Of a stretch of 32,163 nt of DNA, positions 4,145 to 25,781 are shown in pieces. Each line of letters opens with the position of its first letter. Positions within the stretch are counted from its first letter, which is position 1. Source of the DNA: a bacterium (lineage in GTDB: Bacteria > Arandabacterota > Arandabacteria > Arandabacterales > Arandabacteraceae); NCBI GenBank assembly GCA_049288275.1, contig JBAQHK010000242.1, forward strand, positions 1 through 32,163, written 5' to 3'. A model generated the notes under the pieces. It worked only from the letters and a program-made list of their open reading frames with translations. It was not told the DNA's origin and did no database searches. A program made the position numbers and the translations under genes.

Positions 4145-5230
4145 GTGCGAATCGTTTTCATCTTGCCGGGTTATCCCTGGCGGCCGGTCGGCGGTTTCAG
4201 GGTGGTCTATGAGTACGCCAACGGGCTCGTGGCGCGGGGCCACGACCTGGCGGTGGTCCACCCGCGCAACCTTCGCAACTGGTCGCCACCGCCCGCCCAC
4301 GGGTCCGCCAGACTGCGTCGGCTGGCAGGGCGCGCCCGGAACGCTCTCTTCAGGCCCGGCGTGCGTTGGAACCCCATCGACAGCCGGGTGAGAATGCTCT
4401 ACGTCGCCGACCCCGCGACCGAGCGCATCCCGGACGCCGACGCGGTGGTCGCCACCGCCTGGCAGACCGCCGAATACGTCGCCGGCTACCCCGCGAGCAA
4501 GGGCCGCAAGTTCTACCTCATTCAGCATTACGAGACCTGGAGCGGCCCGCGCGAGCGCGTGGACGCCACCTGGCGGGCGCCGATGAAGAAGATCGTGATC
4601 GCCAGGTGGCTCGCGGCCAAGGGACTCGAGCTGGGGGTGCCCGCCGAAGACATGGTTCACATCCCCAACGGCATCGACCACACCAGGTTCCGGCCGGTGC
4701 GCCCGCTGGACAGGAGGCCGTCCAGGGCGGCCATGCTGTGGAGTCCACTGGAATGGAAGGGCGCCGGACACGGTCTGAGAGCCATGGAACTGGCGAGGGC
4801 CGAAAGGCCGGGCCTCGAGGCAATCCTCTTCGGAACGGGCCCTACGCCTGGAGGCCTGCCTGCCTGGGCGCCCTACTTCCGCGATCCGCCCCAGCGGGAC
4901 CTGGTGGAGCGCATCTACAACGGCAGCGGCATCTACCTCTGCCCCAGCCTCGCCGAAGGATGGGCGCTGCCGCCCGCAGAGGCGATGGCGTGCGGATGCG
5001 CGCTCGTGGCAAGCGACATAGGCGGGGTCCGCGACTACGCCGACGACGAGGTCACGGCCCTGCTCTCTCCCGCCGGCCAGCCGGAAGCCATGGCAGCCAA
5101 CATCCTGCGCCTGACTGCGGATGACGGGTTGAGACGGCGGCTTGCAGAGGCCGGCCGGCAGAGGATCGCCGACTTCACCTGGCCGAAGAGCACCGATCTC
5201 CTGGAGGCCGAGCTCACAGCACTACGTTGA
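4145..5230 (+). CDS. Glycosyltransferase family 4 (GT-B fold, GT1 superfamily)
   Basis: GTG 4145 gives MRIVFILPGYPWRPVGGFRVVYEYANGL, a typical GT4 N-terminus. C-terminal EGWALPPAEAMACGCALVASDIGGVRDYADDEVTALL is the E-x7-E sugar-donor motif. The ORF-track N-terminal extension from 3860 overlaps the divergent lipoprotein gene and is rejected. Confidence 0.8.
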   Translation: MRIVFILPGYPWRPVGGFRVVYEYANGLVARGHDLAVVHPRNLRNWSPPPAHGSARLRRLAGRARNALFRPGVRWNPIDSRVRMLYVADPATERIPDADAVVATAWQTAEYVAGYPASKGRKFYLIQHYETWSGPRERVDATWRAPMKKIVIARWLAAKGLELGVPAEDMVHIPNGIDHTRFRPVRPLDRRPSRAAMLWSPLEWKGAGHGLRAMELARAERPGLEAILFGTGPTPGGLPAWAPYFRDPPQRDLVERIYNGSGIYLCPSLAEGWALPPAEAMACGCALVASDIGGVRDYADDEVTALLSPAGQPEAMAANILRLTADDGLRRRLAEAGRQRIADFTWPKSTDLLEAELTALR

Positions 5231-6320: not shown

Positions 6321-6950
6321 ATGAACCCGAGATCCCGGATCCTCGCGGCTGCCGGCCTGATTGCCGTGGTTCTGGTCGCCGGCCGCGCCACCCCCACCCA
6401 CGCTGCAAGACGAGTCGGGCTCGAGGCCGGCCATCTTCACAGTTCCAGCGGATGGTACGGCTCCGGGCTGGTCTACGGCGCGACCATCATCGAGGGGACC
6501 GGCAACTTCGGCACCGGCCTCACCATGATGCGGGCCGCCACCTCCGAGGCATCAAGAACGGTCACCAAGACCGGCATCTTCAGGCACACCGACGACTACT
6601 CGGACTTTTGCGTGACCCTGCTGGGGACCTGGACGCGTGCCGACTCCACGCACAAGACCCTGTATTGGGCGGGGCTGGGCCCGCAAGTCCACATCATCTC
6701 CGCGACGCGGCAGCACACCGACGAAGGCTTCGCCGAGTCCGCCCGCGAGTCCCGCTTCGGCATAGGCCTGCTGGGCCGCTGCGAGCGCAAGATCGAGGCC
6801 TTCGGGAGCGTGGCCGTGGCATTGAGCGTGGCGTGCTCGTGGATGGAGTCCGGGATCGACACAAGCGCCGATCCCTATGCGCCCTTCGCGCCGCCCGCCG
6901 GCGCGGTGAGCTCGGTTGCGGTCACCGCGGGCCTATCGCTTCCCTTCTAG
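6321..6950 (+). CDS. Secreted protein, probable small outer-membrane beta-barrel (signal peptide, C-terminal Phe)
   Basis: MNPRSRILAAAGLIAVVLVAGRATPTHA is a signal peptide. The Gly/Thr/Ser-rich mature part has amphipathic beta-strand-like segments and ends ...LSLPF. No specific family was assigned. Confidence 0.5.
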   Translation: MNPRSRILAAAGLIAVVLVAGRATPTHAARRVGLEAGHLHSSSGWYGSGLVYGATIIEGTGNFGTGLTMMRAATSEASRTVTKTGIFRHTDDYSDFCVTLLGTWTRADSTHKTLYWAGLGPQVHIISATRQHTDEGFAESARESRFGIGLLGRCERKIEAFGSVAVALSVACSWMESGIDTSADPYAPFAPPAGAVSSVAVTAGLSLPF

Positions 6951-6970
6951 GTCGCGCCCCACGTGGCAGG

Positions 6971-8410
6971 CTAGCAATCCAGGTAGAGCTCTATCTCGTA
7001 GGGATGCGGATGCTGTCCCACCGGATAGACCTCCAGCCTGTACTTCATGTCGATCCAGGTCGAAATCAGATCCTCGGTGAAGACGTCTCCCGCCAGCAGA
7101 AAGTCGTGGTCCGCCCGCAGGGCCTCGAGCGCCTCGTGCAGGTCGAGGGGCATGCTCATAATGCCCTTGGCCGCAAGATCGGAGACCTTGAAGGCGTTCA
7201 AGTCGAAGGGGCCGAAGCCCTCCCGCTGGGGATCTATCTTGTGCCTGATGCCGTCCAGGCCCGCCATCAGCATCGCGGCGGTCGCCAGATAGGGGTTGGA
7301 GCTGCCGTCCGAGGGCCTGAACTCCACCCGGGCGTCCCGCTCGAGACCCATCCCCTTGGGGATGCGCACCGCGGCGCTTCGGTTGGCGATGGAATAGGTG
7401 AAGCAAACCGGGGCTTCAAACCCGGGAACAAGCCGCTTGTAAGAGTTGGTGCTCGGGCAGGTCAAGGCCAGGAGCGCCCTGCCGTGCTTCAAGAGGCCGC
7501 CGATGTAGTAGAGAGCCTCTCGGCTGAGGCTGCCGTATCCGCCCCTCTTGAAGAAGATGTTACGGCCTGCCTTCGCCAGGTGCTGATGGAAGTGCATGCC
7601 GTTTCCGGGCTGGCCAAAGATGGGCTTGGGTATGAAGGTGGCCACCAGGTTGTGCGCGGCGGCGAGATTCTTGATGAAGTACTTGGCCGTGATGATGTTG
7701 TCCGCCGTAGTCAAGAGCCCCGCAGGTCTGACTTCGATCTCGCACTGACCGGCCGAACCTCCCTCGTGGTGCGCGTACTTGACCTCTATGCCGGCCCGCC
7801 CGATCCTCTCGACCATCAGCGACCGCAGCCCCAGATGGCGATCCAACGGCGGCACGGCATGATAGCCCTTGCCGCTTATCCAAGGATAGGTCTTGCCGGC
7901 CCAGTCGGGCTCGATGCCCGCGGAGAGGGACTTGACGGTGTAGCCGGTAACAGCGGGCAACCCCAGGATCTTCACCTCGTCCAGCAGGTTGAACTCCAGC
8001 TCGGGCATGAAGTAGGCCCGGTCGGCGATTCCTGTCCGCATCAAGTACTTCTCGGCCTTGCTTGCCACCAGCCTGGGATCCCTCGCGAAGGGCTTCTTGG
8101 TGTCAGCCTCGACCACGTAGCAGATGAAGCTCGCCAGGGCGACCTCCGCCCCCGCGGGATCCTCGATGAAGTGGCTCGCCGGATCGGGGATCAGGCTCAG
8201 GTCGCCGCTTTCCAGCCTGGTGAACCCCGGCACACTCGAGCCGTCAAAGGCCACGCCCCGACTGAAGGTCTCCTCGTTGAAGTTCGAGACTGGAAGTACC
8301 ACCTGGTGCCAGCGGCCGGGGAGGTCAACGAATTTGAGACTGACCTCCCTGACCCCGGACTTCTTGACCCAGGTCAAGGCTTTGCTGATCACGCCAGTCC
8401 GTCCTGCCAT
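6971..8410 (-). CDS. glnA: Glutamine synthetase, type I
   Basis: KPIFGQPGNGMHFHQH and the C-terminal ...IDMKYRLEVYPVGQHPHPYEIELYLDC are GS signatures. The ~480-aa length matches GSI. Preferred start is ATG 8410 (GGCGAGG 7 nt upstream) rather than GTG 8419. Confidence 0.85.
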   Translation of the reverse strand: MAGRTGVISKALTWVKKSGVREVSLKFVDLPGRWHQVVLPVSNFNEETFSRGVAFDGSSVPGFTRLESGDLSLIPDPASHFIEDPAGAEVALASFICYVVEADTKKPFARDPRLVASKAEKYLMRTGIADRAYFMPELEFNLLDEVKILGLPAVTGYTVKSLSAGIEPDWAGKTYPWISGKGYHAVPPLDRHLGLRSLMVERIGRAGIEVKYAHHEGGSAGQCEIEVRPAGLLTTADNIITAKYFIKNLAAAHNLVATFIPKPIFGQPGNGMHFHQHLAKAGRNIFFKRGGYGSLSREALYYIGGLLKHGRALLALTCPSTNSYKRLVPGFEAPVCFTYSIANRSAAVRIPKGMGLERDARVEFRPSDGSSNPYLATAAMLMAGLDGIRHKIDPQREGFGPFDLNAFKVSDLAAKGIMSMPLDLHEALEALRADHDFLLAGDVFTEDLISTWIDMKYRLEVYPVGQHPHPYEIELYLDC

Positions 8411-8446
8411 ATCCCGCACCTCGCCTGTCTTGAGTTCCCTGCGCGT

Positions 8447-9682
8447 CTACAGGCCCAGGACCGAGACCATCGCGCGATTGAGATCGGTGTTGTCCTTGAA
8501 CCCCGAGAAACGCTCCTCACCCGGCCCCCGGGCGATAACCGGAACCATGGTGCCCGTGTGGCTGCCCGACAACCACTTGACAAAGCCGAAGCCCTCAGCC
8601 GTGAGGTTCGCAGCGTCCTCGACCGGCGGATAGCCCTTCTCGGTCGCCGTAAGAGCGGGGGCGCCGGTGTCGTGGTCGGCCGTGACCACTATGGTCAGCG
8701 TCGAGTCGCTCGACTGGTAATCCATGGCATGACCCAGAGCGGCGTCGAAGGCCAAGAGCTCGCCGAGCGCCACGCCCAGGAGGTTGTCGTGCTCGGCGTG
8801 ATCTATCCTGCCGCCTTCCACCACCAGCACAAACCCGTCGGGATCGGCGGTGAGCACCCTCAAGGCCGCCTTGAACATGTCCGACAGGGAAGGGGTCTCG
8901 AAGTCACGCCGGTCGCCCTCAAAGGGAATGTCCTGGGTCGCGAAGAGGCCCAGGATCTTCGTCCCCTCGGCGGCCCTCAGGCCTTCCTTGTCCCGAGCGA
9001 CATCAAAGCCCCGGTCCCGTGCCTCCTCGGTGAGGTCCCTGCCGTCGCTACGCAGGCCCTGTCCTTCGGGCAACCCCGCCGGCAGGAAGTAGGCGCTGCC
9101 GCCTCCCATCACCACCGACGCGCCCCCCTCCACGATCTGGGTGGCTATGTTGAACTCCGCGTCTCTCGAGGACGAGTGGGCCAGAAAGCCGGCCGGCGTG
9201 GCGTCGGTGACCGCCGTGGTTGTGACCACCCCGACGGACTTGCCCGCTCGGAGAGCCTTCTCGAAGAGGTTCTCGAGGCGCGAGCCGTCGGCAGCGATGC
9301 CCACCATGCCGTTGTTGGTCTTGGACCCGGTGGCAAGCGCCGTGGCCCCCGCGGCCGAGTCCGTGACCAGCTTGTTGTTGGAGTAAGTGGTGGCCATGCC
9401 CAGCCGGCCCGTCGCGGCAAGCGCAACCATGTTGAGCTCGACCTCGAGTGCCTTGTCCGAGTAGACCTTGGCCAGGCTCACGATCCCCGGTCCCATACCG
9501 TCGCCTATGAAGAGAATCAGGCTCCCGGCCCGCGTCCCGAGATGGGCCGCCGAAGGATTGGAGCCCTCGGGCCAGGGTTGGTTGCCGGCCGCCGGCCCAG
9601 CCACAGAACAGCCGGCAAAACACAGGGCCGCCAAGGCGGCAAGGCAGACAAGTCTATTCAAGGTCGCCTTAGGCAGTAACAT
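8447..9682 (-). CDS. Alkaline phosphatase (PhoA family), lipoprotein-type signal
   Basis: LVCLAALAALCFAGC is a signal/lipobox. TDSAAGATALATG is the active-site Ser motif, and DHAEHD and VTADHDTG/SGSHTG are metal-ligand motifs. ATG 9682 is preceded by GGGAGGA. Confidence 0.85.
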   Translation of the reverse strand: MLLPKATLNRLVCLAALAALCFAGCSVAGPAAGNQPWPEGSNPSAAHLGTRAGSLILFIGDGMGPGIVSLAKVYSDKALEVELNMVALAATGRLGMATTYSNNKLVTDSAAGATALATGSKTNNGMVGIAADGSRLENLFEKALRAGKSVGVVTTTAVTDATPAGFLAHSSSRDAEFNIATQIVEGGASVVMGGGSAYFLPAGLPEGQGLRSDGRDLTEEARDRGFDVARDKEGLRAAEGTKILGLFATQDIPFEGDRRDFETPSLSDMFKAALRVLTADPDGFVLVVEGGRIDHAEHDNLLGVALGELLAFDAALGHAMDYQSSDSTLTIVVTADHDTGAPALTATEKGYPPVEDAANLTAEGFGFVKWLSGSHTGTMVPVIARGPGEERFSGFKDNTDLNRAMVSVLGL

Positions 9683-9799
9683 ACGTCCTCCCTCGCTTGA
9701 GCTGTGGTCACAGGTGAAGATAACACATCGGCCCCCGATCTCAAAGCCTACAGCCCCGGGCGCGGCCGGACCCTGTGCTGACTCGCACGCCTCCCGCCC

Positions 9800-10336
9800 C
9801 TACTTGCCACACTGCTCGGGAGCAGCCTCGCCCCCCGGCGAGCCGGCGACCCGGTTTATGGCCTCGGCAAGCCTCCGAGCCGCTGCTTCGACCGCCGGAC
9901 CCATCGGACCGCCGAACTCGAGGCTCCCGGGCTGAATCGCGACGAAGAAGGTCTCGGCGTCGGTCCCGGCCTCCACGTAGTCGGTCAGAAGCACCAACCG
10001 GGCAGCGTGGGTCGATATCCCACCGCCGCCTATCTCGTCCCTGGCTATCGCGCGCACATCGCCCGGCGCGCCCCCGAAGTCCGCGGCGTCTATGACCACC
10101 ACCTTCTCCGGCCCGAGCCGCACGATCACACCGAGGTAGTTCTCGGGGGTCTCGCCGCAGTCCAGGACCGTGAGGCGCCCTGACGGCCTGATCAGGCGCC
10201 CCACAAAGGGGCCCACCCCGTCGTCGCCGCGCCATTCATTGCCCACGCAGGCCACGACCACACGGCCGGAGAGCATTCGCCTGAGGAGATTCCGATCCAG
10301 CATGGTTCCCGATCTTGACGTCGCGCCCTCGGCCAC
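9800..10336 (-). CDS. Hydrogenase maturation endopeptidase (HycI/HoxW family)
   Basis: VVACVGNEWRGDDGVGPFVGRL is the family signature. It is the last gene of the hydrogenase operon. GTG 10336 overlaps the stop of the upstream gene (TAGTG); an alternative ATG lies at 10303. Confidence 0.75.
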   Translation of the reverse strand: MAEGATSRSGTMLDRNLLRRMLSGRVVVACVGNEWRGDDGVGPFVGRLIRPSGRLTVLDCGETPENYLGVIVRLGPEKVVVIDAADFGGAPGDVRAIARDEIGGGGISTHAARLVLLTDYVEAGTDAETFFVAIQPGSLEFGGPMGPAVEAAARRLAEAINRVAGSPGGEAAPEQCGK

Positions 10337-10944
10337 TATGCCTTAAGCTGAACCTGACGACGGCACTTGGGGCAGAGGATCCTGACCACGTCCTGCCTGC
10401 CGACGTCCGCCTTCTGGTCGCGCGGGGGAGCGTCCTTGAGGAGGCTGGAGTCCTTGAGAGCCGTAAGAACGAGGGTCGGATTGGAGTAGGCCAGAGGACC
10501 GATCCTCTCGGCCACCCACTTTATGTGATCGGCGGCGCCCACGACGTCGCCGCACATCTCGCACAGCACCAGATCCTTCTCGACACCCGTCACGGCGTCG
10601 TTTCGGTTGAACCAGACGGTGTTGTAGTCGTCGGTCAGCTTGATGCCCTTCTTGGTAATGCAGTTGGCCTCGCACTGGCCGCACTGGATGCACTTGTCGT
10701 AGCGAAGCGTTATCTTGCGCTTCCTGGTCTTGGGATCGTCCTCCACCTGGATGTCGTTGGCGGGGCACACCAGGGCGCACGCTCCGCATCCCACGCAACC
10801 CTTCTCGTCATAAACCGCCTTGCCCCTGAATCGCTTGGCCGCCGGTGACGGTTTCTTGGGGAAAGGATGGGTGTACGGCCCCGTGAAGAGCGCGGTCAGA
10901 GCCTCTTTCAGGATCCTGCCCTGGAGTATCCCTGGAAGTTTCAT
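10336..10944 (-). CDS. Group 4 hydrogenase 2x[4Fe-4S] subunit (NuoI/HycF-like) with a C-terminal CxxC...CxxC extension
   Basis: CVGCGACALVCP and CIQCGQCEANC are two ferredoxin-type cluster motifs. The C-terminus carries CEMCGD...CPKCRR, which is zinc-ribbon-like. A 1-nt gap separates it from the upstream gene. Confidence 0.8.
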   Translation of the reverse strand: MKLPGILQGRILKEALTALFTGPYTHPFPKKPSPAAKRFRGKAVYDEKGCVGCGACALVCPANDIQVEDDPKTRKRKITLRYDKCIQCGQCEANCITKKGIKLTDDYNTVWFNRNDAVTGVEKDLVLCEMCGDVVGAADHIKWVAERIGPLAYSNPTLVLTALKDSSLLKDAPPRDQKADVGRQDVVRILCPKCRRQVQLKA

Positions 10945-10945
10945 C

Positions 10946-12424
10946 TCACATCCCCAGTATGTTGGCGCCGTAGGTGACGCCTTCCTGGATCACCTTGGCG
11001 GCGGACATGAAGAAGTCGGCTTGAATCCGCGGCAGCCACAGCAGCCCCATGGAGAAACAAAGGGCTGTCAGCACGACCGCCACGGCCTGCATCAAGGCCG
11101 GCACCGCGCGCCTGGTCTCCATGCCTTCCCTGGCCTGGTCGTGGAGCACGACCTTCTGGAACCTGGCCATGGAGGCGATGGTGAGGATGCTTCCCGCCAC
11201 CATCCACGCCGCGTATCCGTATCGCTCGGCCTGGACCACGGCAACCAGGATGAAGAGCTTGCTCCAGAACCCGCCGAATGGCGGAATGCCCGACAGCGAC
11301 AGAGCTCCTATGGTTGAGGTTGCGCCCACCACCGGCAGCTTGTGCTTCACGTCCCCCAGGCGATCGTAGGAGGTGCCGCCGGTCGCATGCTCGAGCGAGC
11401 CCGCGTTCATGAAGAGCAGCGTCTTGGCAACCGCGACGTTCATCATGTGAAAGAGCGCAGCCGCGATGCCCAAGCGGGTCCCCAGGCCCAAACCCAGCAG
11501 CACAAAGCCGGTCTCGCTTATGGTGTGATATGACAGCACTCGCTTGAGATCGTTCTGGGCAAGGGCCGCCAGCGCGCCGATGATAATCGAAAGCGCGCCG
11601 AGCACAAGCAGCAGGCTGAGGACCGTCGGGGTCGCCCCCAGGGCGTTGAAGAGAACCCTCATCATGGCGAAGACACCCACGGCCTTCATCAGCACGCCGC
11701 AGAGCGTCGCCGAGAAGGACGTCGGGGCGGAGTCCACAAGGCCGACCAGCCAGCCGTGGAACGGGAACATGCCCGCCTGGAGCCCAAGCCCCACCAGAAA
11801 GAGCGCCAGAGCCAGAAGATGCCACGTGGTCGGACCCGTTCCGACGGTCTTGGCCACCTGAGCCATGTTGACGCTGTGCGCCGAGCCGTAGGTCACCAGC
11901 ATCCCCGCCAGGACAAGCGCCACACCTATGCCGGCCGCGACGAGGTACTTCGAAGCGGCCCGGGCATCCGCGCCCGCGCCGCGATGGGCCAGCATCGCGT
12001 AAGCCGCCGCTGATACCATCGCGACCGCCACCAGGACCCCAACGAGATCGCCAGCCAGCACCGCCCAGTTGGCTCCTGCAAGACTCAGCATCAGCAGCGC
12101 ATGGTGCCTGACCTTCAGGGCCCGCTCGACATAGGCGATCGAGTACAGAGCCCCGGCCAACCCTATCAGGTTCGTGGTGATCAGCATCACAACCGCCGGC
12201 CCATCGAGCACCAGGCTCATGCCCGGAGTGCCCTGCGGGGGAACGCCACCGGTGATCCAAAGGATCCCGCTCTTGCCCACAGAGACAAGAGCCATCAACG
12301 AGAGCACGCCGGCAGCCAGGGTCGCCAGGGCGTCAGCCACGGCCGGGCTCCGCTTGCCCATGAGCGCGACCAGGACGCCCGCTACCAGAGGCACGAGCAG
12401 GAACAGGTAAAGAGCAGATGTCAT
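10946..12424 (-). CDS. Antiporter-like membrane subunit (NuoN/NuoM / Mrp D-like) of the hydrogenase complex
   Basis: Polytopic protein with the FPFHGWL and GIPPFGGFWSK motifs of complex I antiporter-like subunits. ATG 12424 lies 4 nt after the upstream stop. The ORF-track N-terminal extension is rejected. Confidence 0.8.
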   Translation of the reverse strand: MTSALYLFLLVPLVAGVLVALMGKRSPAVADALATLAAGVLSLMALVSVGKSGILWITGGVPPQGTPGMSLVLDGPAVVMLITTNLIGLAGALYSIAYVERALKVRHHALLMLSLAGANWAVLAGDLVGVLVAVAMVSAAAYAMLAHRGAGADARAASKYLVAAGIGVALVLAGMLVTYGSAHSVNMAQVAKTVGTGPTTWHLLALALFLVGLGLQAGMFPFHGWLVGLVDSAPTSFSATLCGVLMKAVGVFAMMRVLFNALGATPTVLSLLLVLGALSIIIGALAALAQNDLKRVLSYHTISETGFVLLGLGLGTRLGIAAALFHMMNVAVAKTLLFMNAGSLEHATGGTSYDRLGDVKHKLPVVGATSTIGALSLSGIPPFGGFWSKLFILVAVVQAERYGYAAWMVAGSILTIASMARFQKVVLHDQAREGMETRRAVPALMQAVAVVLTALCFSMGLLWLPRIQADFFMSAAKVIQEGVTYGANILGM

Positions 12425-12428
12425 AGTG

Positions 12429-14252
12429 TCACCGCACCAGCACGGCCAAGACCACAACCGCGCCCGCTATTAGCCAGACAAGGCCCCCGGCGAAGAAGCC
12501 GCTGTGCAAGACCTTGGCTCCCCTCGCGAGATACCCGACCAGGTCCCTGCCGTACTCATAGATGTCGAGGTTCTTGGCCCCGGCCCAGCGCTGGATCCTC
12601 TTGAAGCACGGCATGTCCGTGATGGTGTTGTAGAATTCCGTGCCGGTTACCCGCGCCTCGGCCGGAAGAATCTCGCCGCCGACGTAGGCCGAATCGCGCC
12701 TCACCGCCCTCGCCCGACCTGCGAGATATATCAGGAGCCCTATCCCCAGTCCCGCAAGTATCAGCAGCGTGGCAACGCCAAGGTTCCACCAATTGAGCCA
12801 GACGCCGCCACCGGGAACCCGGAGCGAGGGAACCGCGCTCACCGCCGGCACGATGAAGGCCTTGAGCGGCAGCGCGTAGGCGAACACTCCAAACACCAGC
12901 CCGACCACGCCAAGCAGAATCATCGGGAGCCACATGAGGATGCCGACTTCTTTGGGCCCCTGGCCGCCCCTCGCCCTTATCCCCAGAAAGACTCCGTGCA
13001 GGAGCTTGACGAAGCTGGCGAGCGTCAGGGCCGAGCCGAACATGGCCGCGACAAGCCAAATCACCCAGAGATGACCGCCGCCCTTGCCCAGATCGACGAT
13101 CCCCTGGTAGACCATCCATTTCGAGGCGAAGCCGCCGAAGGGCGGGACGCCGGATATGGCCAGCGCCGCCAGCAGGCAGGACGCGAAGGTCACAGGCATG
13201 AACCGCGCCAGGCCCCCAAGCTTGTCGAGGCTGGTTGTTCCCTCGCGCTTCTCCACCGCGCCGCCTGTGAGGAAGAGACATCCCTTGGCGATCGCGTTGT
13301 TGAGCATGTGGAAGAGCCCGCCGGCAACGCCGACGGGATTCAGGGTGCCTATGCCGATGACCATGTAGCCCACCTGGCTGACCGCGTGGTAGCCCAGCAA
13401 GCGCTTCATGTCGTGCTGAACCAGCGCCATCATCACGCCGCCCAGGAGCGTGACCGCGCCGACGACGAGCAGTATCAGCGCCATGGCGGGCGTCAGATTA
13501 AACAGGTGAAGCGATACCCGCGCCAGCAGATAGATCCCCAGGAGTTTGTCAAGGGACGCCGGCAGGAAGGCCACCGCGGAAGCGGGGCCGGCCTCGGCGG
13601 CCTCGGGCACCCACCCGTGGAAGGGCATGGCTCCTGCCTTGGCGAACGCGGCGCAGGCAAACAGTATGAAGGTCAGGCAGGCCAGCCCGGTGATCGTCGG
13701 TATGGCTTCCTGGGTAAGACTGGTGGAGCCGGTCATCAGCCAGAGGATCACCACCGCAAACGCAAGCAGCGCGTCGGTTCCGCCCACTATGATCGAGGTC
13801 TTCTTGACCGCGGCGGAGGCCGAGGCTCCGGCGACGTCTATCAGGAGATGGAGCATCAGGCCCAGGAATGCCCACATGGCCACCAAGAGGATCATGTCGT
13901 TGGCCAGGACCACCCCGCAGGCCGCCGCCAGGGACAGCAGTGAGTAGCCGTAGTACTCGCCCAGGCGGCTCCTGTCTTTCATGAAGCCCACCGAGTAGAG
14001 CATCATCAGGAATCCGAAGATGCCCACCCAGAGGAGGACAAACGACGAGAGGGCGTCCACCTTGAGCATGGCGACGCCGAAAACCTTGGCCTCGACCCAG
14101 CCCTGGCGGAAGAGCAGAATCGCGACGACCAGCGTCACGGCCGACGCCACCAGGGTGATCGTCTCACGCACGCCCTTCAGGGCCCCGGGGAGGACTCTCA
14201 CCAGTATCCCGGCAATAGCGGGCACCACAATCGTGTAGAGCGTTAGCTCCAT
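12429..14252 (-). CDS. NuoL/HycC-like antiporter-type membrane subunit (607 aa)
   Basis: MPFHGWVPEA, GYHAVSQVGYM and SGVPPFGGFASKW motifs. Size and architecture are those of HycC/HyfB/MbhH. Its start overlaps the large-subunit stop by 10 nt (ATGGAGCTAA). Confidence 0.85.
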   Translation of the reverse strand: MELTLYTIVVPAIAGILVRVLPGALKGVRETITLVASAVTLVVAILLFRQGWVEAKVFGVAMLKVDALSSFVLLWVGIFGFLMMLYSVGFMKDRSRLGEYYGYSLLSLAAACGVVLANDMILLVAMWAFLGLMLHLLIDVAGASASAAVKKTSIIVGGTDALLAFAVVILWLMTGSTSLTQEAIPTITGLACLTFILFACAAFAKAGAMPFHGWVPEAAEAGPASAVAFLPASLDKLLGIYLLARVSLHLFNLTPAMALILLVVGAVTLLGGVMMALVQHDMKRLLGYHAVSQVGYMVIGIGTLNPVGVAGGLFHMLNNAIAKGCLFLTGGAVEKREGTTSLDKLGGLARFMPVTFASCLLAALAISGVPPFGGFASKWMVYQGIVDLGKGGGHLWVIWLVAAMFGSALTLASFVKLLHGVFLGIRARGGQGPKEVGILMWLPMILLGVVGLVFGVFAYALPLKAFIVPAVSAVPSLRVPGGGVWLNWWNLGVATLLILAGLGIGLLIYLAGRARAVRRDSAYVGGEILPAEARVTGTEFYNTITDMPCFKRIQRWAGAKNLDIYEYGRDLVGYLARGAKVLHSGFFAGGLVWLIAGAVVVLAVLVR

Positions 14253-15463
14253 ATTCTGTCCATCCTCGACCCGTACTTCTCAATCAGGTTACGGGTCTTC
14301 TCGTGGGACATCCTCAGGAGATCCTTTCCTGTAGCGATCTTCCTTCCCGTCCCCGCTTCTACCACCATGGTCCGCTCGGTGCAACAGTAGCACGGGTCGA
14401 TGGCCGCCAGGGTGATTGTGGCGTCCGAGACCGTGTACCCCACGCAGGCCCGCTTGTTGGTGGGGACGTTCATGTAACTCGGAGCCCGTATCTTGTAACG
14501 CAGCGGCTTGTTGGTCCCGTCCGAGCGGGTGAAGTGAATCACCTCACCGCGCGGCGCCTCGTGAGTGCCAATGCCCTCGCCGGGCGGTATCTCGATGTAG
14601 TTGGCGTCTATGCCGTCCTTGACCTCGAGGATCTTCTGGACGCACTGCTTGCAGATGCCCACCGATTCCAGAATCTCAAGGACCCGCACCACCAGCTTGT
14701 CGAAGATGTCGCCGTTGGCGGTGGTTATCACGTTGAACTTCACCCTGTCGTAGGCCGCGTATGGGTGGTCCCTTCTGACGTCGATGTCGTAGCCCGAGGC
14801 CCGCGCCGTTGGGCCCAGCGCTCCCAGCTCCACGCAGTCCTGCTTCGAGAGAACGCCGACGTTCTTGGTCCGCGCCTGAAGCACCGGGTCCGAGAGCGCG
14901 ACGTCCCTGAACATCATGGTGGGCTTCACCAGGCCGTCCAGCGTCGCGAGCACCTGCCGCATGTCTTCGTCGGCGAAGTCCCGCCGCACTCCTCCGGGCT
15001 TCATCATCCCGTAGTGGTTGCGGTTGCCGGTCAGGAGCTCGAAGAGATCCAGCACCGGCTCCCGGTACTTCCAGGCCCACATCCACACCGTGTTGTAGCC
15101 CAGGAAGTGACCCGCAAGCCCCAGCCACAGGAGGTGCGAGTGGATTCGCTCCAGCTCTCCTATGAATGTCCTGATGTACTTCGCACGCTCCGGTATGTCC
15201 AGATTGGCGCAATCCTCTATCGCCTGGACGCAGGCGAAGGGATGCGACGACGAGCAGATGCCGCATATCCGCTCCACGAGGAAGGGAATCTGATCGTAGC
15301 TCAGGTTCTCGGCGAGCTTCTCGATCCCCCGGTGGTTGTAACCGATCTCGATCTCCAGTTCGACGACCTTCTCGCCCTCGACGTGGAGCTTGAAGAACTC
15401 CGGCTCCTCCTGAAGGGGATGATAGGGACCGATAGGTATGATGGTCTTACTTGTTCTTGCCAT
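14243..15463 (-). CDS. [NiFe] hydrogenase large subunit, group 4 (HycE/EchE/MbhL-like)
   Basis: N-terminal L1 motif RICGICSSSH and C-terminal L2 motif DPCYCCTER followed by a ~45-aa extension. ATG 15463 has GGAGAG 9 nt upstream and is preferred over GTG 15472. Confidence 0.9.
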   Translation of the reverse strand: MARTSKTIIPIGPYHPLQEEPEFFKLHVEGEKVVELEIEIGYNHRGIEKLAENLSYDQIPFLVERICGICSSSHPFACVQAIEDCANLDIPERAKYIRTFIGELERIHSHLLWLGLAGHFLGYNTVWMWAWKYREPVLDLFELLTGNRNHYGMMKPGGVRRDFADEDMRQVLATLDGLVKPTMMFRDVALSDPVLQARTKNVGVLSKQDCVELGALGPTARASGYDIDVRRDHPYAAYDRVKFNVITTANGDIFDKLVVRVLEILESVGICKQCVQKILEVKDGIDANYIEIPPGEGIGTHEAPRGEVIHFTRSDGTNKPLRYKIRAPSYMNVPTNKRACVGYTVSDATITLAAIDPCYCCTERTMVVEAGTGRKIATGKDLLRMSHEKTRNLIEKYGSRMDRIWS

Positions 15464-15914
15464 TGTCCCCACCTCTCCAGTCCTTCCAGTCCCTCCGCAA
15501 CGGCCAGTTGTCCTTTGGCCAGTCGTCGGTCAACAGCAGGTGCCTCATGTCGGGATGGCCCTTGAACTCGATGCCCAAGAGCTCGTTCATCTCGCGCTCG
15601 ATCCACTCCGCGGCCGGCACACGGGTCGCGATGGACCCGATCGAAGGCGCTTGGCTGTCAAGCACTACCCTGAGATTGACAAAGCGGCCGGCCTTGTCGT
15701 CGGCGAAGTGATACAGGATTTCCATCCCGTGGGCCATGTGCATGCCCGTGGCTATCGAGAAACGGCACCCCAGGTCCTTGTAAAGGTACTCAGCCATGTC
15801 CGGAAGCCGCTTCGGGTCCACGGTTATGAAGGTCCGCCTCGGGCTCTTCTCATAGACCTCGACGACCGCGCCGCCGAACTTCCCCTTGAGGCCCTGGACT
15901 ACCTCGTCCGCCAT
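15447..15914 (-). CDS. NuoC-like (30-kDa) subunit of group 4 hydrogenase (HycE N-domain/EchD/MbhK-like)
   Basis: Similar to the NuoC family (…EYLYKDLGCRFSIATGMH…HPDMRHLL…). AGGAGGG lies 8 nt upstream of ATG 15914. It overlaps the large-subunit start by 17 nt. Confidence 0.8.
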   Translation of the reverse strand: MADEVVQGLKGKFGGAVVEVYEKSPRRTFITVDPKRLPDMAEYLYKDLGCRFSIATGMHMAHGMEILYHFADDKAGRFVNLRVVLDSQAPSIGSIATRVPAAEWIEREMNELLGIEFKGHPDMRHLLLTDDWPKDNWPLRRDWKDWRGGDNGKNK

Positions 15915-15937
15915 CTGCCCACCCTCCTGTCTCCTGC

Positions 15938-16369
15938 CTATTTCTTGAGCGCCGCAAGCTTGGCCTCGACCAGCGCGACAACCGCCTGTATCATGGCCTC
16001 AGGCTTGGGCGGACAACCGGTGATGTACGCGTCAACGGGAATGACCGAATCCAGCGGTTTGGTCTCGTTGTAAGACGGGCCAAACATCTCCGTGGAGCAG
16101 GAGCAATTGCCCACGGCGATCACGAAGCACGGCTGCGCGGCCTGGGCGATCACCCGCTTGAGGCGCTCGCCGGACTTCCTGTTCATCGAGCCCGTGACCA
16201 GGATCGCGTCCGCGTGGCGAACGCTGCCCACCAGCTGTATCCCGAAACGCTCGAGGTCGAACCGCGGCGTAAGCGCATCCAGTATCTCGATGTCGCAGTT
16301 GTTGCAGGGGCTCGCCGCGAGATGGAAGACCCATATCGATTTGGTTAAGGCTTTCAGCTTCAGGCTCAT
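15938..16369 (-). CDS. [NiFe] hydrogenase small subunit, group 4 (NuoB/HycG-like)
   Basis: SPCNNCDIE, GNCSCS and GCPPKPE are the NuoB-family cluster-binding motifs. ATG 16369 is preceded by GAGGACAGGG. The upstream 17 aa of the ORF-track call are rejected. Confidence 0.85.
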   Translation of the reverse strand: MSLKLKALTKSIWVFHLAASPCNNCDIEILDALTPRFDLERFGIQLVGSVRHADAILVTGSMNRKSGERLKRVIAQAAQPCFVIAVGNCSCSTEMFGPSYNETKPLDSVIPVDAYITGCPPKPEAMIQAVVALVEAKLAALKK

Positions 16370-16379
16370 GCCCTGTCCT

Positions 16380-17330
16380 CTACAAACCCAGAAACGCCAG
16401 AACCACCGCCAGGACGCCAAAGGGCGCGACCCCGATCCAGAAGAACCTCATGATCTGGTCGATCCTCAGGCGCGGATTGGTGTTACGGATCAGCACCATA
16501 ACGAGCAGGATGCCGAAGTACTCCAGCACCGCCCAGAGTATATTGAGATAAGAGCCTCTCCAATTGATGCCGCCCAGGAAGAGCACCAGGAGCAGCAGGG
16601 GGACCGTGAACTGCATCATCCAGTTGGTCAGCTTGAACAGCGCCAGCGCGACCCCGGAATACTCGATGTAAGCCCCGCCCATGATCTCGGTCTCGGCCTC
16701 CGGAGCGTCGAAGGGCACCTTGGCCAACTTGGCCTGCATCACCAGGAGCGAGATCACGAGCGCGATCGCTCCCGAGAAAGACGCCACGAAGGGCCTGGCC
16801 GCGGCCTGGGCCAGCACGATCTCGCCAAGCCTCAGGGTCGAGCCGGCCTTGATGATCGCGACAACTACCGCCAGCAGGAAGGGCAGCTCGTAGGCCAGGA
16901 TCAGCTTGGTTTCCCTGGAACCTCCCAGGGAGGCCAGCGGATTGGCCGACGCGAACGCCCCCAGGATTACCGCCTGCGAGGGCACGGTCAGAAGGTAAAG
17001 CACCACGACGAGATCGCCGGCGAAGCCCTGCTCCGGGAATATCACCGCCCGAATCAGGAGAGCCGTCACCACACCGATCGCTGCGAAGCCGAACAAGGGC
17101 GCCGACAGGAACAGGAACTTGGAGGCTCCCTCCGGCACCACTACCTGCTTGCCCAGGAGCTTTACGAAGTCGTAGAGCGGCTGGAAGAAGGGCGGTCCCA
17201 CCCTCCACTGCACCCTGGCGGTTATCTTGCGGTCGAACCAGTGAGCGAACATGCCGACAACGGCGGCCACGACGAACCCGCCTACAAGAAAGCCCGCGGT
17301 CTCCAGCACGCCCGACACAGTTCCGTTCAT
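16380..17330 (-). CDS. NuoH/HycD-like membrane subunit
   Basis: Polytopic 316-aa protein with the NuoH-family RVQWRVGPPFFQPLYDFVKL and YIEYSG segments. Confidence 0.85.
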   Translation of the reverse strand: MNGTVSGVLETAGFLVGGFVVAAVVGMFAHWFDRKITARVQWRVGPPFFQPLYDFVKLLGKQVVVPEGASKFLFLSAPLFGFAAIGVVTALLIRAVIFPEQGFAGDLVVVLYLLTVPSQAVILGAFASANPLASLGGSRETKLILAYELPFLLAVVVAIIKAGSTLRLGEIVLAQAAARPFVASFSGAIALVISLLVMQAKLAKVPFDAPEAETEIMGGAYIEYSGVALALFKLTNWMMQFTVPLLLLVLFLGGINWRGSYLNILWAVLEYFGILLVMVLIRNTNPRLRIDQIMRFFWIGVAPFGVLAVVLAFLGL

Positions 17331-17339
17331 AGAATCATG

Positions 17340-17822
17340 CTACCTTTTCCAAACATCGCATCTGACTATCAGGTGATCGCTCACCTGGCGAAGCCGTTCG
17401 GCCTCGTTGGGTTCGATCTCGGTCCACCGGATTGCTCCCGCCGGGCAGGTCCTCACGCACAGCGGCTCCTCCGCGGGAGCGATCCGCCCGAGGCAGTAAT
17501 CGCATCGCGACAGCCCGTAGGGGATCAATTCCGGGTAGATGGTGCCGAAGGGACAGGCCAGGGAGCACGACTTGCAGCTTATGCACCTCATGTTGTGGCG
17601 CCTGAGCACGCCCTTGTCGTCCTTCTCCAGAGCCTCCTTGGGGCAGGCGTTGACGCAGTTGGCGAACTCGCACCGCCGGCATATCACCGCGTAGGCCGCC
17701 AGCTCCCTCAAGGACGTCACGCCGTCGTTGCCCGGATGATAGGGATAGCTGCACTTGGCAGGGCAGTCGCCCCGCTCGGCGCACCGGTCGCAGACGTCCA
17801 GATCAATGAACAGTCGCTTCAA
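17340..17822 (-). CDS. Polyferredoxin, HycB-like 4Fe-4S electron-transfer subunit
   Basis: 16 Cys in multiple Cx2Cx2-4Cx3CP-type motifs (CDRCAERGDCPAKC, CRRCEFANCVNACP, CISCKSCSLACP, CDYCLGRIA..CVRTCP). The start is TTG 17822 with no in-frame ATG nearby; GAGG lies 8 nt upstream. Confidence 0.75.
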   Translation of the reverse strand: MKRLFIDLDVCDRCAERGDCPAKCSYPYHPGNDGVTSLRELAAYAVICRRCEFANCVNACPKEALEKDDKGVLRRHNMRCISCKSCSLACPFGTIYPELIPYGLSRCDYCLGRIAPAEEPLCVRTCPAGAIRWTEIEPNEAERLRQVSDHLIVRCDVWKR

Positions 17823-17867
17823 TCCTCAAACCTCACTGCCTCGTTTCCGGCGACTAATCCATGGCGA

Positions 17868-18701
17868 TCAATCCCAGATCGCCGGCTTGCCCTTGACTTG
17901 CTCATAGGTGAGCACGGGGCCGTCCCTGCAAACCAGGTACTGGCCGAGCATGCAATGGCCGCACTTGCCTATGCCGCAACTCATGTTCTTTTCCATCGAA
18001 AGGTAGATCGCGCTGTCCGGGAAGCCCAGCTCCACAAGCCGCAGGGTTCCGAACTTCATCATGATCGGCGGCCCGCAGACCACCGCCACCGCGCTGGCAA
18101 CGTCCAACCCGAGGTCCTTCACGACGGTGGTCACGACTCCGACGTTGCCCTTCCACGTTGGGTCGCCCACGTCCACCGACAGCCGGAACTCGATCTTGCC
18201 GGGGCCGAGCTTCTGCCAGCTGTCCAGGATCAGGCCCTTGTATATGATGTCCGAGGGGCTCTTGGCGCCGTAACAGAAGATGATCTTCTTGAAGTCATCC
18301 AGCCTGTGCAAGAGCGCGAAGAACAGCGAACGCAGGGGAGCAAGTCCCACGCCGCCGCCGAGGATCAGGATCTCCCTGCCCTTGAAATGGTCCAGGGGAT
18401 AGCCCTTGCCCATCGGGCCGCGCACACCGACAGCGTCGCCCTTGCGCATGCCGTGGAGCACGCTGGTAACCTTGCCGGCGCGCATGATGGTGAAGTCCAG
18501 GGTCTCGGTAACCTTGGGGTCCGACGACGGGGTAAACGGCGCCTCGCCCAGGCCCGGCACGGTGACCTCCATGAACTGCCCGGCCTCGAAGGGTATGGGC
18601 CGGCTGGGCTTCAGGACGAAGGTCTTTATGGTCGGGCTCTCCTCTATGACCTCGAGGATCTCGGAGAGCACGGGTTTGTAGATGTCTGGTGTTACCGGCA
18701 T
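17868..18701 (-). CDS. FNR-like FAD/NAD(P)-binding [2Fe-2S] protein (AsrB/HydG/SudB/NfnA family; gamma subunit)
   Basis: RAGKVTSVLHG resembles the FAD-binding region. ILGGGVGLAPL is the NAD(P) Gly-rich loop. C-terminal CGIGKCGHC is the [2Fe-2S] motif. ATG 18701 with GAAGGA upstream overlaps the preceding gene by 10 nt. Confidence 0.8.
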   Translation of the reverse strand: MPVTPDIYKPVLSEILEVIEESPTIKTFVLKPSRPIPFEAGQFMEVTVPGLGEAPFTPSSDPKVTETLDFTIMRAGKVTSVLHGMRKGDAVGVRGPMGKGYPLDHFKGREILILGGGVGLAPLRSLFFALLHRLDDFKKIIFCYGAKSPSDIIYKGLILDSWQKLGPGKIEFRLSVDVGDPTWKGNVGVVTTVVKDLGLDVASAVAVVCGPPIMMKFGTLRLVELGFPDSAIYLSMEKNMSCGIGKCGHCMLGQYLVCRDGPVLTYEQVKGKPAIWD

Positions 18702-19711
18702 ACTTCCTTCAGCACCTTTCTCATGTCGATCTTGCCGGGGCAAGCCGCGATGCAGCGGCCGCAGCCCGTGCACCCGTCGAATCCGTAGTTCTTGGGGAAG
18801 TAATCCAGCTTGTGATAGTACCTGTGCTTGAAGCGTTCAACCAGATGCTTGCGCGGATTGGCGCCCCCCGCGACCTGCGCGAAGCGCTTGTAGGCGCAGG
18901 CATCCCAGGCCTTGAGCCGCTTGTACCTGTCGCCGGCCTTCTCGTCGTACAAGAGGAAGCACTGGCATGTGGGGCAGATGAACAGGCAAGCCCCGCACTC
19001 CACGCAGGTCTCCACGTTCTTGGCCCAAGTGGCGTCGTCGTAAGCCTTGGCCAGGAGATCCTGCCAGGTGGTGGGCGGCTTGAATTCCTTGGACTGCTTT
19101 TCTACTATCTCCAGGGTCTTCTGCCGCCGGGCTCGCCGCTCGTCCAGCCGAGCTTCGGCCGCGGGCTTGAAGATGGTCGCGTTGGCCTCGACAGCCTGCC
19201 TGCCCTTGTCGCTGCCCACCTCGACAACGTAGCCGCCGGTGACCTCGCTCAAGTTGAGATCGAAACCCTTCTCGGCATAGGGCTTGACGCCCACCAGCAC
19301 GCAGAAGCAGGTCTCCAGAGGCTCGGTGCAGTCGGCGCTGACGATGAAGCTCTTCTCCCGTCGATCTCGGTAGAAGGGATCCTGGAAATCGCCCTCGAGG
19401 AAGACACGGTCCAGGGCCTCTATGGCCCGAACGTCGCAGGCCGACGCGCCGACTATGGCGAAGGGCCTGGATTCCTTGAGCGAGGAGGCACTTGAAGGGT
19501 ATTCTGCGACCTCCTCGAGCATCGAGAAGAACAGGGGCTTCAAGGGTTGGAAGGACCTCACGCCCGGCCAGGAGAAGCCGCCGACTTCCGAGTAGGGCTT
19601 CATTCTCACCCGGCCCTGATCGTCCTTGTCGGCTACAAACAGGTCACCACGCTTATGAAGGTAGGATAGGAATGTAGCGAAGTCCGATCCCGTCACGTAG
19701 TAGGCAGTCAT
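18692..19711 (-). CDS. AsrA/HydB-like iron-sulfur protein (sulfhydrogenase beta / anaerobic sulfite reductase subunit A family)
   Basis: CVECGACLFICPTCQC and CTGCGRCIAACP are ferredoxin motifs, plus a CFCV motif. It pairs with the FNR-like gene as in HydBG/AsrAB. ATG 19711 is preceded by AGGAAGAAGG. The ORF-track 40-aa N-terminal extension is rejected. Confidence 0.75.
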   Translation of the reverse strand: MTAYYVTGSDFATFLSYLHKRGDLFVADKDDQGRVRMKPYSEVGGFSWPGVRSFQPLKPLFFSMLEEVAEYPSSASSLKESRPFAIVGASACDVRAIEALDRVFLEGDFQDPFYRDRREKSFIVSADCTEPLETCFCVLVGVKPYAEKGFDLNLSEVTGGYVVEVGSDKGRQAVEANATIFKPAAEARLDERRARRQKTLEIVEKQSKEFKPPTTWQDLLAKAYDDATWAKNVETCVECGACLFICPTCQCFLLYDEKAGDRYKRLKAWDACAYKRFAQVAGGANPRKHLVERFKHRYYHKLDYFPKNYGFDGCTGCGRCIAACPGKIDMRKVLKEVCR

Positions 19712-20051: not shown

Positions 20052-20450
20052 CTACGAGCCGGCGGGGCGGGGCTGGCAGTGGTCTCGGACGTGGGTCATG
20101 TCCTGGGCGATCTCCAGACAGCCCAAGTAGCCGCCGCGCTCGTCCCTCAGGGCCAAGTACCTCACGTTGACCAGCCTGCCGTCGAGGTCCACCCACGCCT
20201 CCACCAAGTCCTTTACGCCGGATCTGAGGTCGGCGATCACCTTGTCGACGGCGGGCACGCTCTTGGCGGGATGACAGCTCTGAACGCTGGTGCCCAATAT
20301 GGCCTTGGTGCGGGTGAAGAGCCTGTGCCGGGGTTCATTGAAGTAGAGGATGGTGTCGTCCGGGCCCACGAAGGTCAGGTCCCCCGGCACGGCGTTCAGG
20401 ATTGCGAGCATAGTGTCGAGGTCGATCATGCCATGCCCAGTTTCAATCAC
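20052..20450 (-). CDS. PAS-domain protein (PAS_10 / DUF438-associated PAS type), stand-alone
   Basis: ILNAVPGDLTFVGPDDTILYFNE...RLFTRTKAILGTSVQSCHP...DLRSG...WVDLDGRLVNVRYLALRDERGGYLGCLEIAQDMT matches the PAS_10 pattern. GTG 20450 overlaps the upstream stop (GTGA); an alternative ATG lies at 20429. Confidence 0.65.
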   Translation of the reverse strand: MIETGHGMIDLDTMLAILNAVPGDLTFVGPDDTILYFNEPRHRLFTRTKAILGTSVQSCHPAKSVPAVDKVIADLRSGVKDLVEAWVDLDGRLVNVRYLALRDERGGYLGCLEIAQDMTHVRDHCQPRPAGS

Positions 20451-25752: not shown

Positions 25753-25781
25753 CGCAGTAGCGGCAGCGGAGGACGATGGGC

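Follow-up and report, generated by a model that had tools for sequence, protein, structure and literature searches.

Gene clusters that join a [NiFe] hydrogenase of group 4, bound to the membrane, to an AsrA/AsrB-like oxidoreductase have previously been described under several names. An "enigmatic" group 4 hydrogenase of Saganbacteria RX5A is encoded together with Mrp subunits, cooF, asrA and asrB and has relatives in Omnitrophica (Matheus Carnevali et al. 2019, PMC6349859), for the Elusimicrobia version, to which no function was assigned, the name "Mbh-Mrp-oxidoreductase type" was used (Meheust et al. 2020, 10.1101/765248), and a 16-subunit operon was named hunA-P (Glass et al. 2021, 10.1101/536078). 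Hun carriers include Atribacteria, Omnitrophica, Elusimicrobia, Bacteroidetes, Firmicutes and the cultured Kosmotoga, HydDB assigns the large subunit HunG to Group 4g, yet HunG is distant from other 4g sequences, and its metal motifs are CGIC/CYCC (10.1101/536078). Electron input from "ferredoxin or NADH" had been suggested earlier (PMC6469976), and the homologue in Ca. Tritonobacter was annotated as "Mbh, Group 4g, plus Mrp" and assumed to be ferredoxin-driven (Williams et al., PMC9324843). Here we examine a bacterial contig of 32,163 bp (JBAQHK010000242.1, G+C roughly 64%; hereafter the window, meaning the whole stretch), in which 11 co-directional open reading frames (ORFs) on the minus strand fill the interval from 19711 to 9800 and encode a reduced relative of Hun.

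On balance, the sequence evidence points to a single operon for a minimal member of the Hun family, an Mbh/Mrp-type group 4 [NiFe] hydrogenase that is probably linked to NAD(P)H. The gene order (AsrA-like, AsrB-like, FeS protein, NuoH-, NuoB- and NuoC-like, large subunit, MrpA-like, ..., MrpD-like, ..., NuoI-like), the CGIC and CYCC motifs of HunG, and the hydrogenase and membrane-anchor module (HunD, HunE, HunF, HunG and HunP) are those published for Hun (10.1101/536078), whereas HunI, J, K, M, N and O, which make up six of the 16, are missing from the window and HunL lacks the glutamate of transmembrane helix 5 (TM5) and the lysine of TM7. Likewise, the RX5A and Mbh-Mrp-oxidoreductase clusters share with the window an Mbh-like hydrogenase, an AsrA/AsrB/CooF-like oxidoreductase module and relatives in Omnitrophica and Elusimicrobia, and differ from it in carrying Mrp antiporter subunits and, in RX5A, an unclassifiable molybdopterin oxidoreductase; the window has neither the small Mrp-like subunits nor such an oxidoreductase. 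An earlier interpretation made from the DNA letters and their translations (the sequence-only reading) had regarded this set of modules as falling outside the classical group 4 combinations. The combination is real, but it had already been described (PMC6349859, 10.1101/765248, 10.1101/536078): the architecture is that of the 16-subunit Hun complex, and what is new here is a minimal variant of a described but biochemically uncharacterised family.

Genes were assigned by Pfam, NCBIfam and PDB comparisons, with start codons refined against relatives and NCBI protein lengths (406 aa for P0001 and 492 aa for P0121), and the resulting features are collected in Table 1. With these starts, adjacent genes either share 10-17 nt or leave gaps of 1-45 nt between them, and the gene list and tight co-directional packing proposed in the sequence-only reading are confirmed. 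That reading also took the genes to be a single operon, for which a promoter or terminator at the hunB-hunC junction (17822-17868) would be the critical exception. Such an internal site was considered and rejected: the 45-nt gap (17823-17867) has no T-run and folds like shuffled sequence (z=-0.46), and a consensus and pattern scan found no promoter-like or terminator-like site between the two genes. The TTG start of hunC is preceded by a GAGG ribosome-binding site, and the corresponding gap in relatives is often merely 2-20 nt. In sediment metatranscriptomes of Atribacteria, the hydrogenase and the adjacent oxidoreductase were found to be co-transcribed (Bird et al., PMC6469976). Upstream of hunA, the -35 element TTGACA of the candidate promoter P1 is invariant across six aligned relatives, and both hexamers of the candidate distal promoter P2 are recognisable in the same alignment columns in L083, L086, L001 and L003. 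The large subunit carries both nickel-binding pairs (L1 RICGICSSSH and L2 DPCYCCTER), with C70, C73, C361, Y362, C363 and C364 invariant in 31 homologues, and has a 42-aa C-terminal extension, as would suit a substrate of the HycI protease that the operon also encodes. The translation of hunC contains 16 Cys in four CxxCx(n)Cx3C(P) groups.

Table 1. Features of the hun region and of its surroundings in the window
Feature	Position	Strand	Description	Evidence
hunA	18692-19711	-	339 aa, SHI-beta/AsrA-like multi-[4Fe-4S] protein	Pfam Fer4_22 5e-30; PDB 9nez_B 1.8e-43
hunB	17868-18701	-	277 aa from ATG at 18701, SHI-gamma/AsrB-like FAD- and NAD(P)-binding [2Fe-2S] flavoprotein	Pfam FAD_binding_6, NAD_binding_1, DHODB_Fe-S_bind; PDB 9nez_C 1e-46
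hunC	17340-17822	-	160 aa, CooF/HycB/DmsB-class ferredoxin	Pfam Fer4_11 1.9e-12
hunD	16380-17330	-	316 aa, NuoH/HycD/MbhM-like membrane anchor	Pfam NADHdh 9.7e-66
hunE	15938-16369	-	143 aa from ATG at 16369, NuoB/MbhJ-like hydrogenase small subunit	Pfam Oxidored_q6 3.3e-27; relatives 143 aa
hunF	15447-15914	-	155 aa, NuoC/MbhK-like, separate from large subunit	Pfam Complex1_30kDa 5e-26
hunG	14243-15463	-	406 aa, [NiFe] large subunit	Pfam NiFeSe_Hases and Complex1_49kDa
hunH	12429-14252	-	607 aa, MrpA/NuoL-like antiporter-type subunit	Pfam Proton_antipo_M 2.3e-46
hunL	10946-12424	-	492 aa, MrpD-like antiporter-type subunit, divergent	Pfam Proton_antipo_M 6.3e-46
hunP	10336-10944	-	202 aa, HycF/NuoI/MbhN-like 2x[4Fe-4S] protein	NCBIfam FHL complex iron-sulfur subunit (NF009053) 8.9e-28; Pfam Fer4_7 and related families
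hycI-type gene	9800-10303	-	large-subunit maturation endopeptidase	Pfam HycI (PF01750) 1.6e-15
candidate promoter P1	19779-19807	-	sigma70-like, TTGACA-17-TATCCT, ~68 nt upstream of hunA ATG	consensus scan 10/12
candidate distal promoter P2	19840-19868	-	sigma70-like, TTGCAC-17-TAATAT	sequence reading
terminator-like hairpin	9727-9748	-	weak, after hycI; tentative, site count not above shuffle expectation	pattern scan
PAS_10 gene	20052-20450	-	132 aa, stand-alone, directly upstream of the operon	Pfam PAS_10 2.4e-25
alkaline phosphatase gene	8447-9682	-		syntenic with L083
glutamine-synthetase-like ORF	6971-8419	-		syntenic with L083
1075-aa ORF	6452-9679	+	most likely spurious	no Pfam match
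oxygen-defence set	25042-27462	+	flavin reductase-rubredoxin fusion; flavodiiron-type protein; rubrerythrin	ODP/Lactamase_B and flavodoxin domains in the flavodiiron-type protein
response-regulator-domain genes	30205-32153	-	two adjacent genes: two receivers and Hpt; receiver and HisKA	

To examine how widely this arrangement is conserved, one genome per species was scanned with the large subunit, and the window proteins were mapped onto the 80 best-matching loci, whose large subunits are 60-79% identical. Relatives of the large subunit are encoded in at least 547 species-level genomes, and the loci are spread over Eisenbacteria, Omnitrophota, Planctomycetota, Elusimicrobiota, Clostridia, FCPU426, Kiritimatiellia, Fibrobacterota, Nitrospirota, Margulisbacteria and some Proteobacteria; among them is the homologue of Ca. 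Tritonobacter lacicola (L053), whose large subunit is 62% identical to that of the window. Every locus with enough flank shows the order beta-like, gamma-like, ferredoxin, NuoH, NuoB, NuoC, large subunit, MrpA-like, ..., MrpD-like, ..., HycF-like, usually then HycI, and the three input genes hunA, hunB and hunC stand in this order upstream in all 62 loci where the sequence ahead of the NuoH-like gene spans 2.5 kb or more. Gene order conserved to this extent far exceeds chance. The fusion of an asrA-like and fnr-like pair to a hycB...hycI series, on which the sequence-only reading was built, therefore holds well beyond the window.

The same reading took the first two gene products to be the NAD(P)H-oxidising dimer of a cytoplasmic sulfhydrogenase. 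PDB alignments identify them as homologues of the NADPH-oxidising beta/gamma pair of soluble sulfhydrogenase I (SHI) from P. furiosus (group 3b; 9NEZ), and the cofactor motifs are conserved across phyla. The alignment of HunB to the NADPH-binding gamma subunit is full-length, the Cys motifs of HunA align with those of SHI-beta, and little or no variation is seen in EAPFTPSS, GxxT, RGPxG, GGGVGxAPLR, CGPPxMMK and MSCGxGKCGHC...C[KR]DGPV among 63 HunB sequences drawn from many phyla. Conservation of the FAD and NAD(P) motifs is hard to explain with an unused site, which argues against regarding the module as a "ferredoxin antenna", and coupling to NAD(P)H is plausible. The motif YGA[RK][TS]PxD, also present in the HunB set, occurs in NADH- and NADPH-specific relatives alike and was set aside as a guide to specificity.

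HunA and HunB nevertheless differ from the SHI subunits in their partner, since SHI beta/gamma dock on a cytoplasmic group 3b small/large pair whereas here they are paired with a group 4 enzyme in the membrane. The possibility of a genuine group 3b enzyme was rejected because the window contains no alpha or delta genes, only hydrogenase subunits of the NuoB/NuoD type. The NCBIfam matches of HunA (ShyB 2.8e-56, HydB 3.4e-49, AsrA 2.6e-34) all fall under their equivalog cut-offs, and scores of this kind mark HunA and HunB as homologues, not orthologues, of the sulfhydrogenase subunits. In one Planctomycetales locus (L059), a complete group 3b operon (beta, gamma, delta, alpha and protease, 410-4958) lies directly upstream of hun (5030 onward). 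The presence of the two side by side (28-38% versus 43-60% identity) indicates that 3b beta/gamma and HunA/B are distinct paralogues.

Homology to AsrA and AsrB also raises the question of whether the complex reduces sulfur, polysulfide or sulfite, with the AsrAB/sulfhydrogenase-like pair passing electrons from H2 to a sulfur compound, and sulfur-compound reduction was mentioned as possible by Bird et al. (PMC6469976). We consider this the most improbable of the alternatives, given that all Asr and sulfhydrogenase scores in NCBIfam lie far under the equivalog cut-offs (119 and 201 bits for AsrA and AsrB, against 323 and 289) and that neither the scanned ORFs of the window nor the hun loci that were inspected include an AsrC/siroheme subunit. 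An AsrABC sulfite reductase was rejected for want of AsrC.

The hydrogenase itself had been called Hyc/FHL-type (formate hydrogenlyase, FHL), a label that has to be withdrawn. The best PDB match of HunG is MbhL (6cfw_L, 1.8e-86), followed by HycE (7z0s_E, 5.8e-79); because MbhL outscores HycE and the NuoC- and NuoD-like parts are separate genes, the enzyme is Mbh/Mrp-like rather than Hyc/FHL-like, and its family normally has a complete Mrp module. HycE of E. coli FHL-1 (Hyc, group 4a; 7Z0S) is a NuoC-NuoD fusion of ~570 aa, whereas the window has an unfused large subunit of 406-409 aa and a separate 155-aa Complex1_30kDa gene. The input also differs, being FdhF in FHL and HunAB here, and the window has a second antiporter-like subunit. 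Both systems do have HycB-, HycF-, HycD-, HycC- and HycG-like subunits and a HycI protease, and the minimal form resembles FHL-1 in its short membrane arm without small Mrp subunits.

A conventional formate hydrogenlyase, in which a formate dehydrogenase (Fdh) encoded elsewhere docks on HunC and HunAB is an accessory side branch, would agree with the HycB-like character of HunC and the HycF-like character of HunP, and in three Clostridia loci Fdh, FdhD and MobA are encoded immediately upstream of hunA. We nonetheless judge it very unlikely. As the sequence-only reading had stated, there is no formate dehydrogenase in the window: ORF profile scans and tblastn with Fdh queries found no molybdopterin/Fdh gene in the 32 kb, nor is there one within 10 kb in L083 and L086, although the genome may carry a distal fdh. 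Moreover, the large subunit is not of the fused HycE type, and the universally conserved partner is HunAB, not Fdh. In the Clostridia loci an Fdh-like molybdopterin gene, MobA, FdhD and Rex precede hun (L009 573-5720, L010 789-5780, L011 361-5505), and L009 and L011 have an extra HydB-like gene after the Fdh-like gene. This arrangement suggests a formate-linked elaboration in that lineage.

These loci also bear on a three-way, confurcating or bifurcating-like enzyme, in which electrons entering from NAD(P)H through HunAB would meet, at the [NiFe] site, those of a low-potential donor, either ferredoxin or a partner of Fdh-like type at HunC. Molybdopterin genes lie inside or beside some clusters in published genomes as well (10.1101/536078, PMC6349859), and the four-cluster HunC could branch. 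An enzyme of this kind, with NADPH involvement, was recently proposed for Group 4b clusters that encode SHI-beta/gamma homologues and Cys-less Fdh-like proteins, and AlphaFold models show a three-branched iron-sulfur network (Front Microbiol 2026, PMC13582414). Those clusters share with the window a membrane-bound group 4 hydrogenase, SHI-beta/gamma homologues and NADPH as a proposed substrate; they differ in being Hyf-like (HyfC- and HyfE-like) and in having the Fdh-like third branch, neither of which the window has, and the relatives of the window are Group 4g in the literature. A third-branch protein is likewise absent from the upstream flank in 59 of the 62 loci, and Pfam and NCBIfam detect no GltD/NfnB-type bifurcating flavoprotein domain in HunA or HunB, so that we rate a three-way enzyme as improbable.

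The membrane arm sets the window apart from most of its relatives. The closest long relative, L083, has a large subunit 87% identical to that of the window and shares its flanks, with a TPR/phosphodiesterase gene and a PAS_10 gene, then alkaline phosphatase and glutamine synthetase. L083 has the full set, with MbhD/E-like, MnhB-like and MrpC-like genes between the antiporter-like genes and MrpE-, MrpF- and MrpG-like genes before the HycF-like gene, and these six small Mrp-like subunits are present in nearly all of the best 80 loci. By contrast, tblastn with the L083 subunits found none of HunI, J and K (MbhD/E, MnhB, MrpC) or HunM, N and O (MrpE, F, G) in the 32-kb window, where hunH, hunL and hunP leave no room for small-subunit genes between them. 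Between the window and L083 the soluble subunits are 80-89% identical, as against 67% for HunH and 49% for HunL, and nonsynonymous divergence (dN) is 0.42 for HunL versus 0.05-0.14 for the soluble subunits. This pattern indicates that the membrane arm evolved fast on the branch losing the small subunits.

The minimal form was recovered from four independent samples. L085, from an independent metagenome, has an identical 11-gene layout, and in L087 and L089 HunH is followed directly by HunL and HunP. Intermediates (L086 and L088) keep a ~170-aa protein and a NuoK-like subunit and lack MnhB and MrpEFG, so that one clade presents a graded series in the membrane arm (window 10946-14252, L083 13036-17073) from full (16 subunits plus HycI) through intermediate to minimal, with which the loss of the HunL Glu and Lys runs parallel. 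An assembly artefact was rejected as the cause of the missing small Mrp genes, given the same layout in three further independent samples and purifying selection. Compared with L085, the window gives a dN/dS of 0.19 for HunL and of 0.06-0.15 for the remaining subunits of the complex, and the range of 0.06-0.24 across genes is purifying, which means that the proteins are still under selection.

Work on complex I and Mrp has established that the proton path of antiporter-like subunits is characterised by a TM5 Glu/TM7 Lys pair. In all four minimal forms, TM5 Glu of HunL is replaced by Ala and TM7 Lys by Gln, whereas both residues are retained in the full and intermediate forms; L088 has additionally lost the TM8 and TM12 Lys. 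When aligned to MbhH, MrpA, NuoL and relatives, HunH keeps the Lys of TM7, TM8 and TM12, and its TM5 Glu is absent family-wide (WE to WG, WA or WS), including in full 16-subunit forms. Neither antiporter-like subunit of the window therefore retains TM5 Glu. Together with the loss of the six small Mrp-like subunits, this makes the description "potentially ion-pumping" the weakest part of the sequence-only reading as far as this copy is concerned.

Regulatory sequences provide a further line of evidence. In 11 loci, which belong to several phyla, the gene immediately upstream of hunA is rex. Rex is a repressor that senses NADH/NAD+, and we searched 1.355 Mb of locus DNA for its palindromic operator (TTGTGAA-N4-TTCACAA, up to 2 mismatches). 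Of the 32 matches, 26 fall within the 29 kb lying upstream of hunA or rex-hunA (binomial p=4e-38), a value to be read with the caveat that AT-rich intergenic DNA is somewhat likelier than coding DNA to match an AT-rich palindrome. Of 60 loci, 25 have Rex boxes, mostly 13-55 nt ahead of the start codon (2-90 nt overall), and the perfect or near-perfect operators are those of L006, L009-L013, L025, L026, L031, L032, L039, L043, L044, L051-L054, L058-L060, L064, L065, L069, L074 and L080. We found no report of Rex operators upstream of hun in the Hun literature consulted. Since Rex responds to NADH/NAD+, the operon is expected to be on when NADH accumulates in organisms with Rex boxes, and NADH-responsive expression of this kind fits a reductant-disposing, H2-evolving role. 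The clade of the window has no Rex box and has a PAS_10 gene there instead, which is found upstream of hunA in L083 and also, with a Zip gene between, in L086. The PAS_10 protein is a putative sensor that may replace Rex control in this clade and may or may not belong to the system.

Against a link to NAD(P)H, the principal alternative is a ferredoxin-driven, H2-evolving hydrogenase of the Mbh type, in which HunABC would be an iron-sulfur antenna by analogy to AsrAB and NAD(P)H would not be a substrate. Glass et al. proposed ferredoxin rather than NAD(P)H as the donor to HunABC (10.1101/536078), homologues have been labelled Group 4g "ferredoxin-coupled (putative)" (PMC8542988, PMC9324843), and HunG is closest to the ferredoxin-dependent MbhL. 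P. furiosus MBH (group 4d; 6CFW) indeed provides the closest solved large subunit and likewise has separate NuoB-, NuoC-, NuoD-, NuoH- and NuoI-like modules and MrpD-like subunits. However, MBH is fed directly by ferredoxin and has no beta/gamma/polyferredoxin cap, whereas the window has three extra soluble redox genes (hunA, hunB and hunC); MBH also has the small Mrp-like MbhA-G and MbhI, while the window operon is without homologues of MbhD/E, MnhB, MrpC, MrpE, MrpF and MrpG. A pure antenna would have no use for a flavin or NAD(P) site, yet the 63 HunB sequences show invariant FAD, NAD(P) and [2Fe-2S] motifs, and both HunA and HunB are homologous along their whole length to the NADPH-oxidising SHI subunits. 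The present evidence thus favours NAD(P)H over the published donor, and we consider a purely ferredoxin-driven enzyme unlikely.

Several further points weigh against the NAD(P)H-linked interpretation. To our knowledge, no Hun complex has been biochemically characterised, and specificity for NADH or NADPH is not assignable from sequence. Evolution of H2 from NAD(P)H costs about +18 kJ/mol under standard conditions, as computed from standard potentials, although by the same calculation it is roughly thermoneutral at 1-10 Pa H2. HunC could also take electrons from ferredoxin or from a dehydrogenase encoded elsewhere, and Fdh genes do adjoin hun in a minority of loci, namely the three from Clostridia. 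Rex regulons include ferredoxin-dependent hydrogenases too, for which reason Rex control does not single out a substrate, and no Rex box was found upstream of hunA in the window even at 4 mismatches. Finally, genes for the absent Mrp subunits could lie in another part of the genome.

From the gene content, homology, synteny, cofactor motifs, gene-loss series and Rex operators of relatives described above, we infer the donor, direction and coupling of an NAD(P)H-linked Hun enzyme as follows. By homology, NAD(P)H would be oxidised at the FAD of HunB, and electrons would pass from the HunB [2Fe-2S] cluster to the [4Fe-4S] clusters in HunA, then through four clusters in HunC and two in HunP to the one cluster that HunE holds. 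At the [NiFe] site, HunG would then reduce protons to H2 in a reaction that is expected to be reversible. In the canonical 16-subunit Hun, this reaction, which runs near equilibrium, would be coupled to movement of H+/Na+ by the complete Mrp-like module, so that an ion gradient could be spent on H2 evolution or energy could be conserved during H2-dependent NAD(P)+ reduction; with a cost of +18 kJ/mol under standard conditions and one near zero at 1-10 Pa H2, the canonical complex could run either way. Because the six small subunits and the HunL TM5 Glu/TM7 Lys have been lost, ion coupling is expected to be reduced or lost in the window copy, where HunD and HunH would be the only candidate ion paths left. 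With little or no coupling, the complex would serve mainly as a membrane-anchored, NAD(P)H-linked hydrogenase that disposes of reductant at low H2 partial pressure. More broadly, and only tentatively, Hun complexes may be reversible ion-motive NAD(P)H:H+ oxidoreductases under Rex control, with the lineage of the window representing a decoupling series (full, intermediate, minimal) in which loss of the Na+/H+ module and of the residues for distal pumping left a weakly coupled or uncoupled, membrane-anchored NAD(P)H hydrogenase.

Other genes in the window were also surveyed (Table 1). The long plus-strand ORF next to the operon is antisense to the alkaline phosphatase and GlnA genes and was rejected as most likely spurious in high-GC DNA, and both of the genes opposite it are syntenic with L083. 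The flavin reductase-rubredoxin fusion, flavodiiron-type protein and rubrerythrin form a defence set against oxygen and reactive species that is typical of anaerobes and is found near hun in L081 and L083 too. The two response-regulator-domain proteins at the far end are phosphorelay parts unrelated to the hun operon.

Taken alone, the window is of moderate value, as a reduced variant of a described family. If Hun complexes are such reversible, ion-motive enzymes under Rex control, they would form a membrane-coupled link between NAD(P)H and H2, complementing Rnf (ferredoxin to NAD+) and Ech/Mbh (ferredoxin to H2). Many of the at least 547 carrier genomes belong to poorly known anaerobic phyla, and homologues have been annotated as ferredoxin-dependent "Mbh, Group 4g" (PMC8542988, PMC9324843); models of H2 and redox balance for these carriers would need revision if the flavoprotein module truly couples to NAD(P)H. 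This would affect how the disposal of NADH by sediment and groundwater fermenters is understood, as well as possible energy conservation from H2-dependent NAD(P)+ reduction. The enrichment of Rex operators is, as far as our literature search showed, the first regulatory evidence tying this operon to the ratio of NADH to NAD+. Full, intermediate and minimal forms, with their matching loss of pump residues, constitute a set of natural variants for examining which membrane subunits complex-I-like ion coupling needs.

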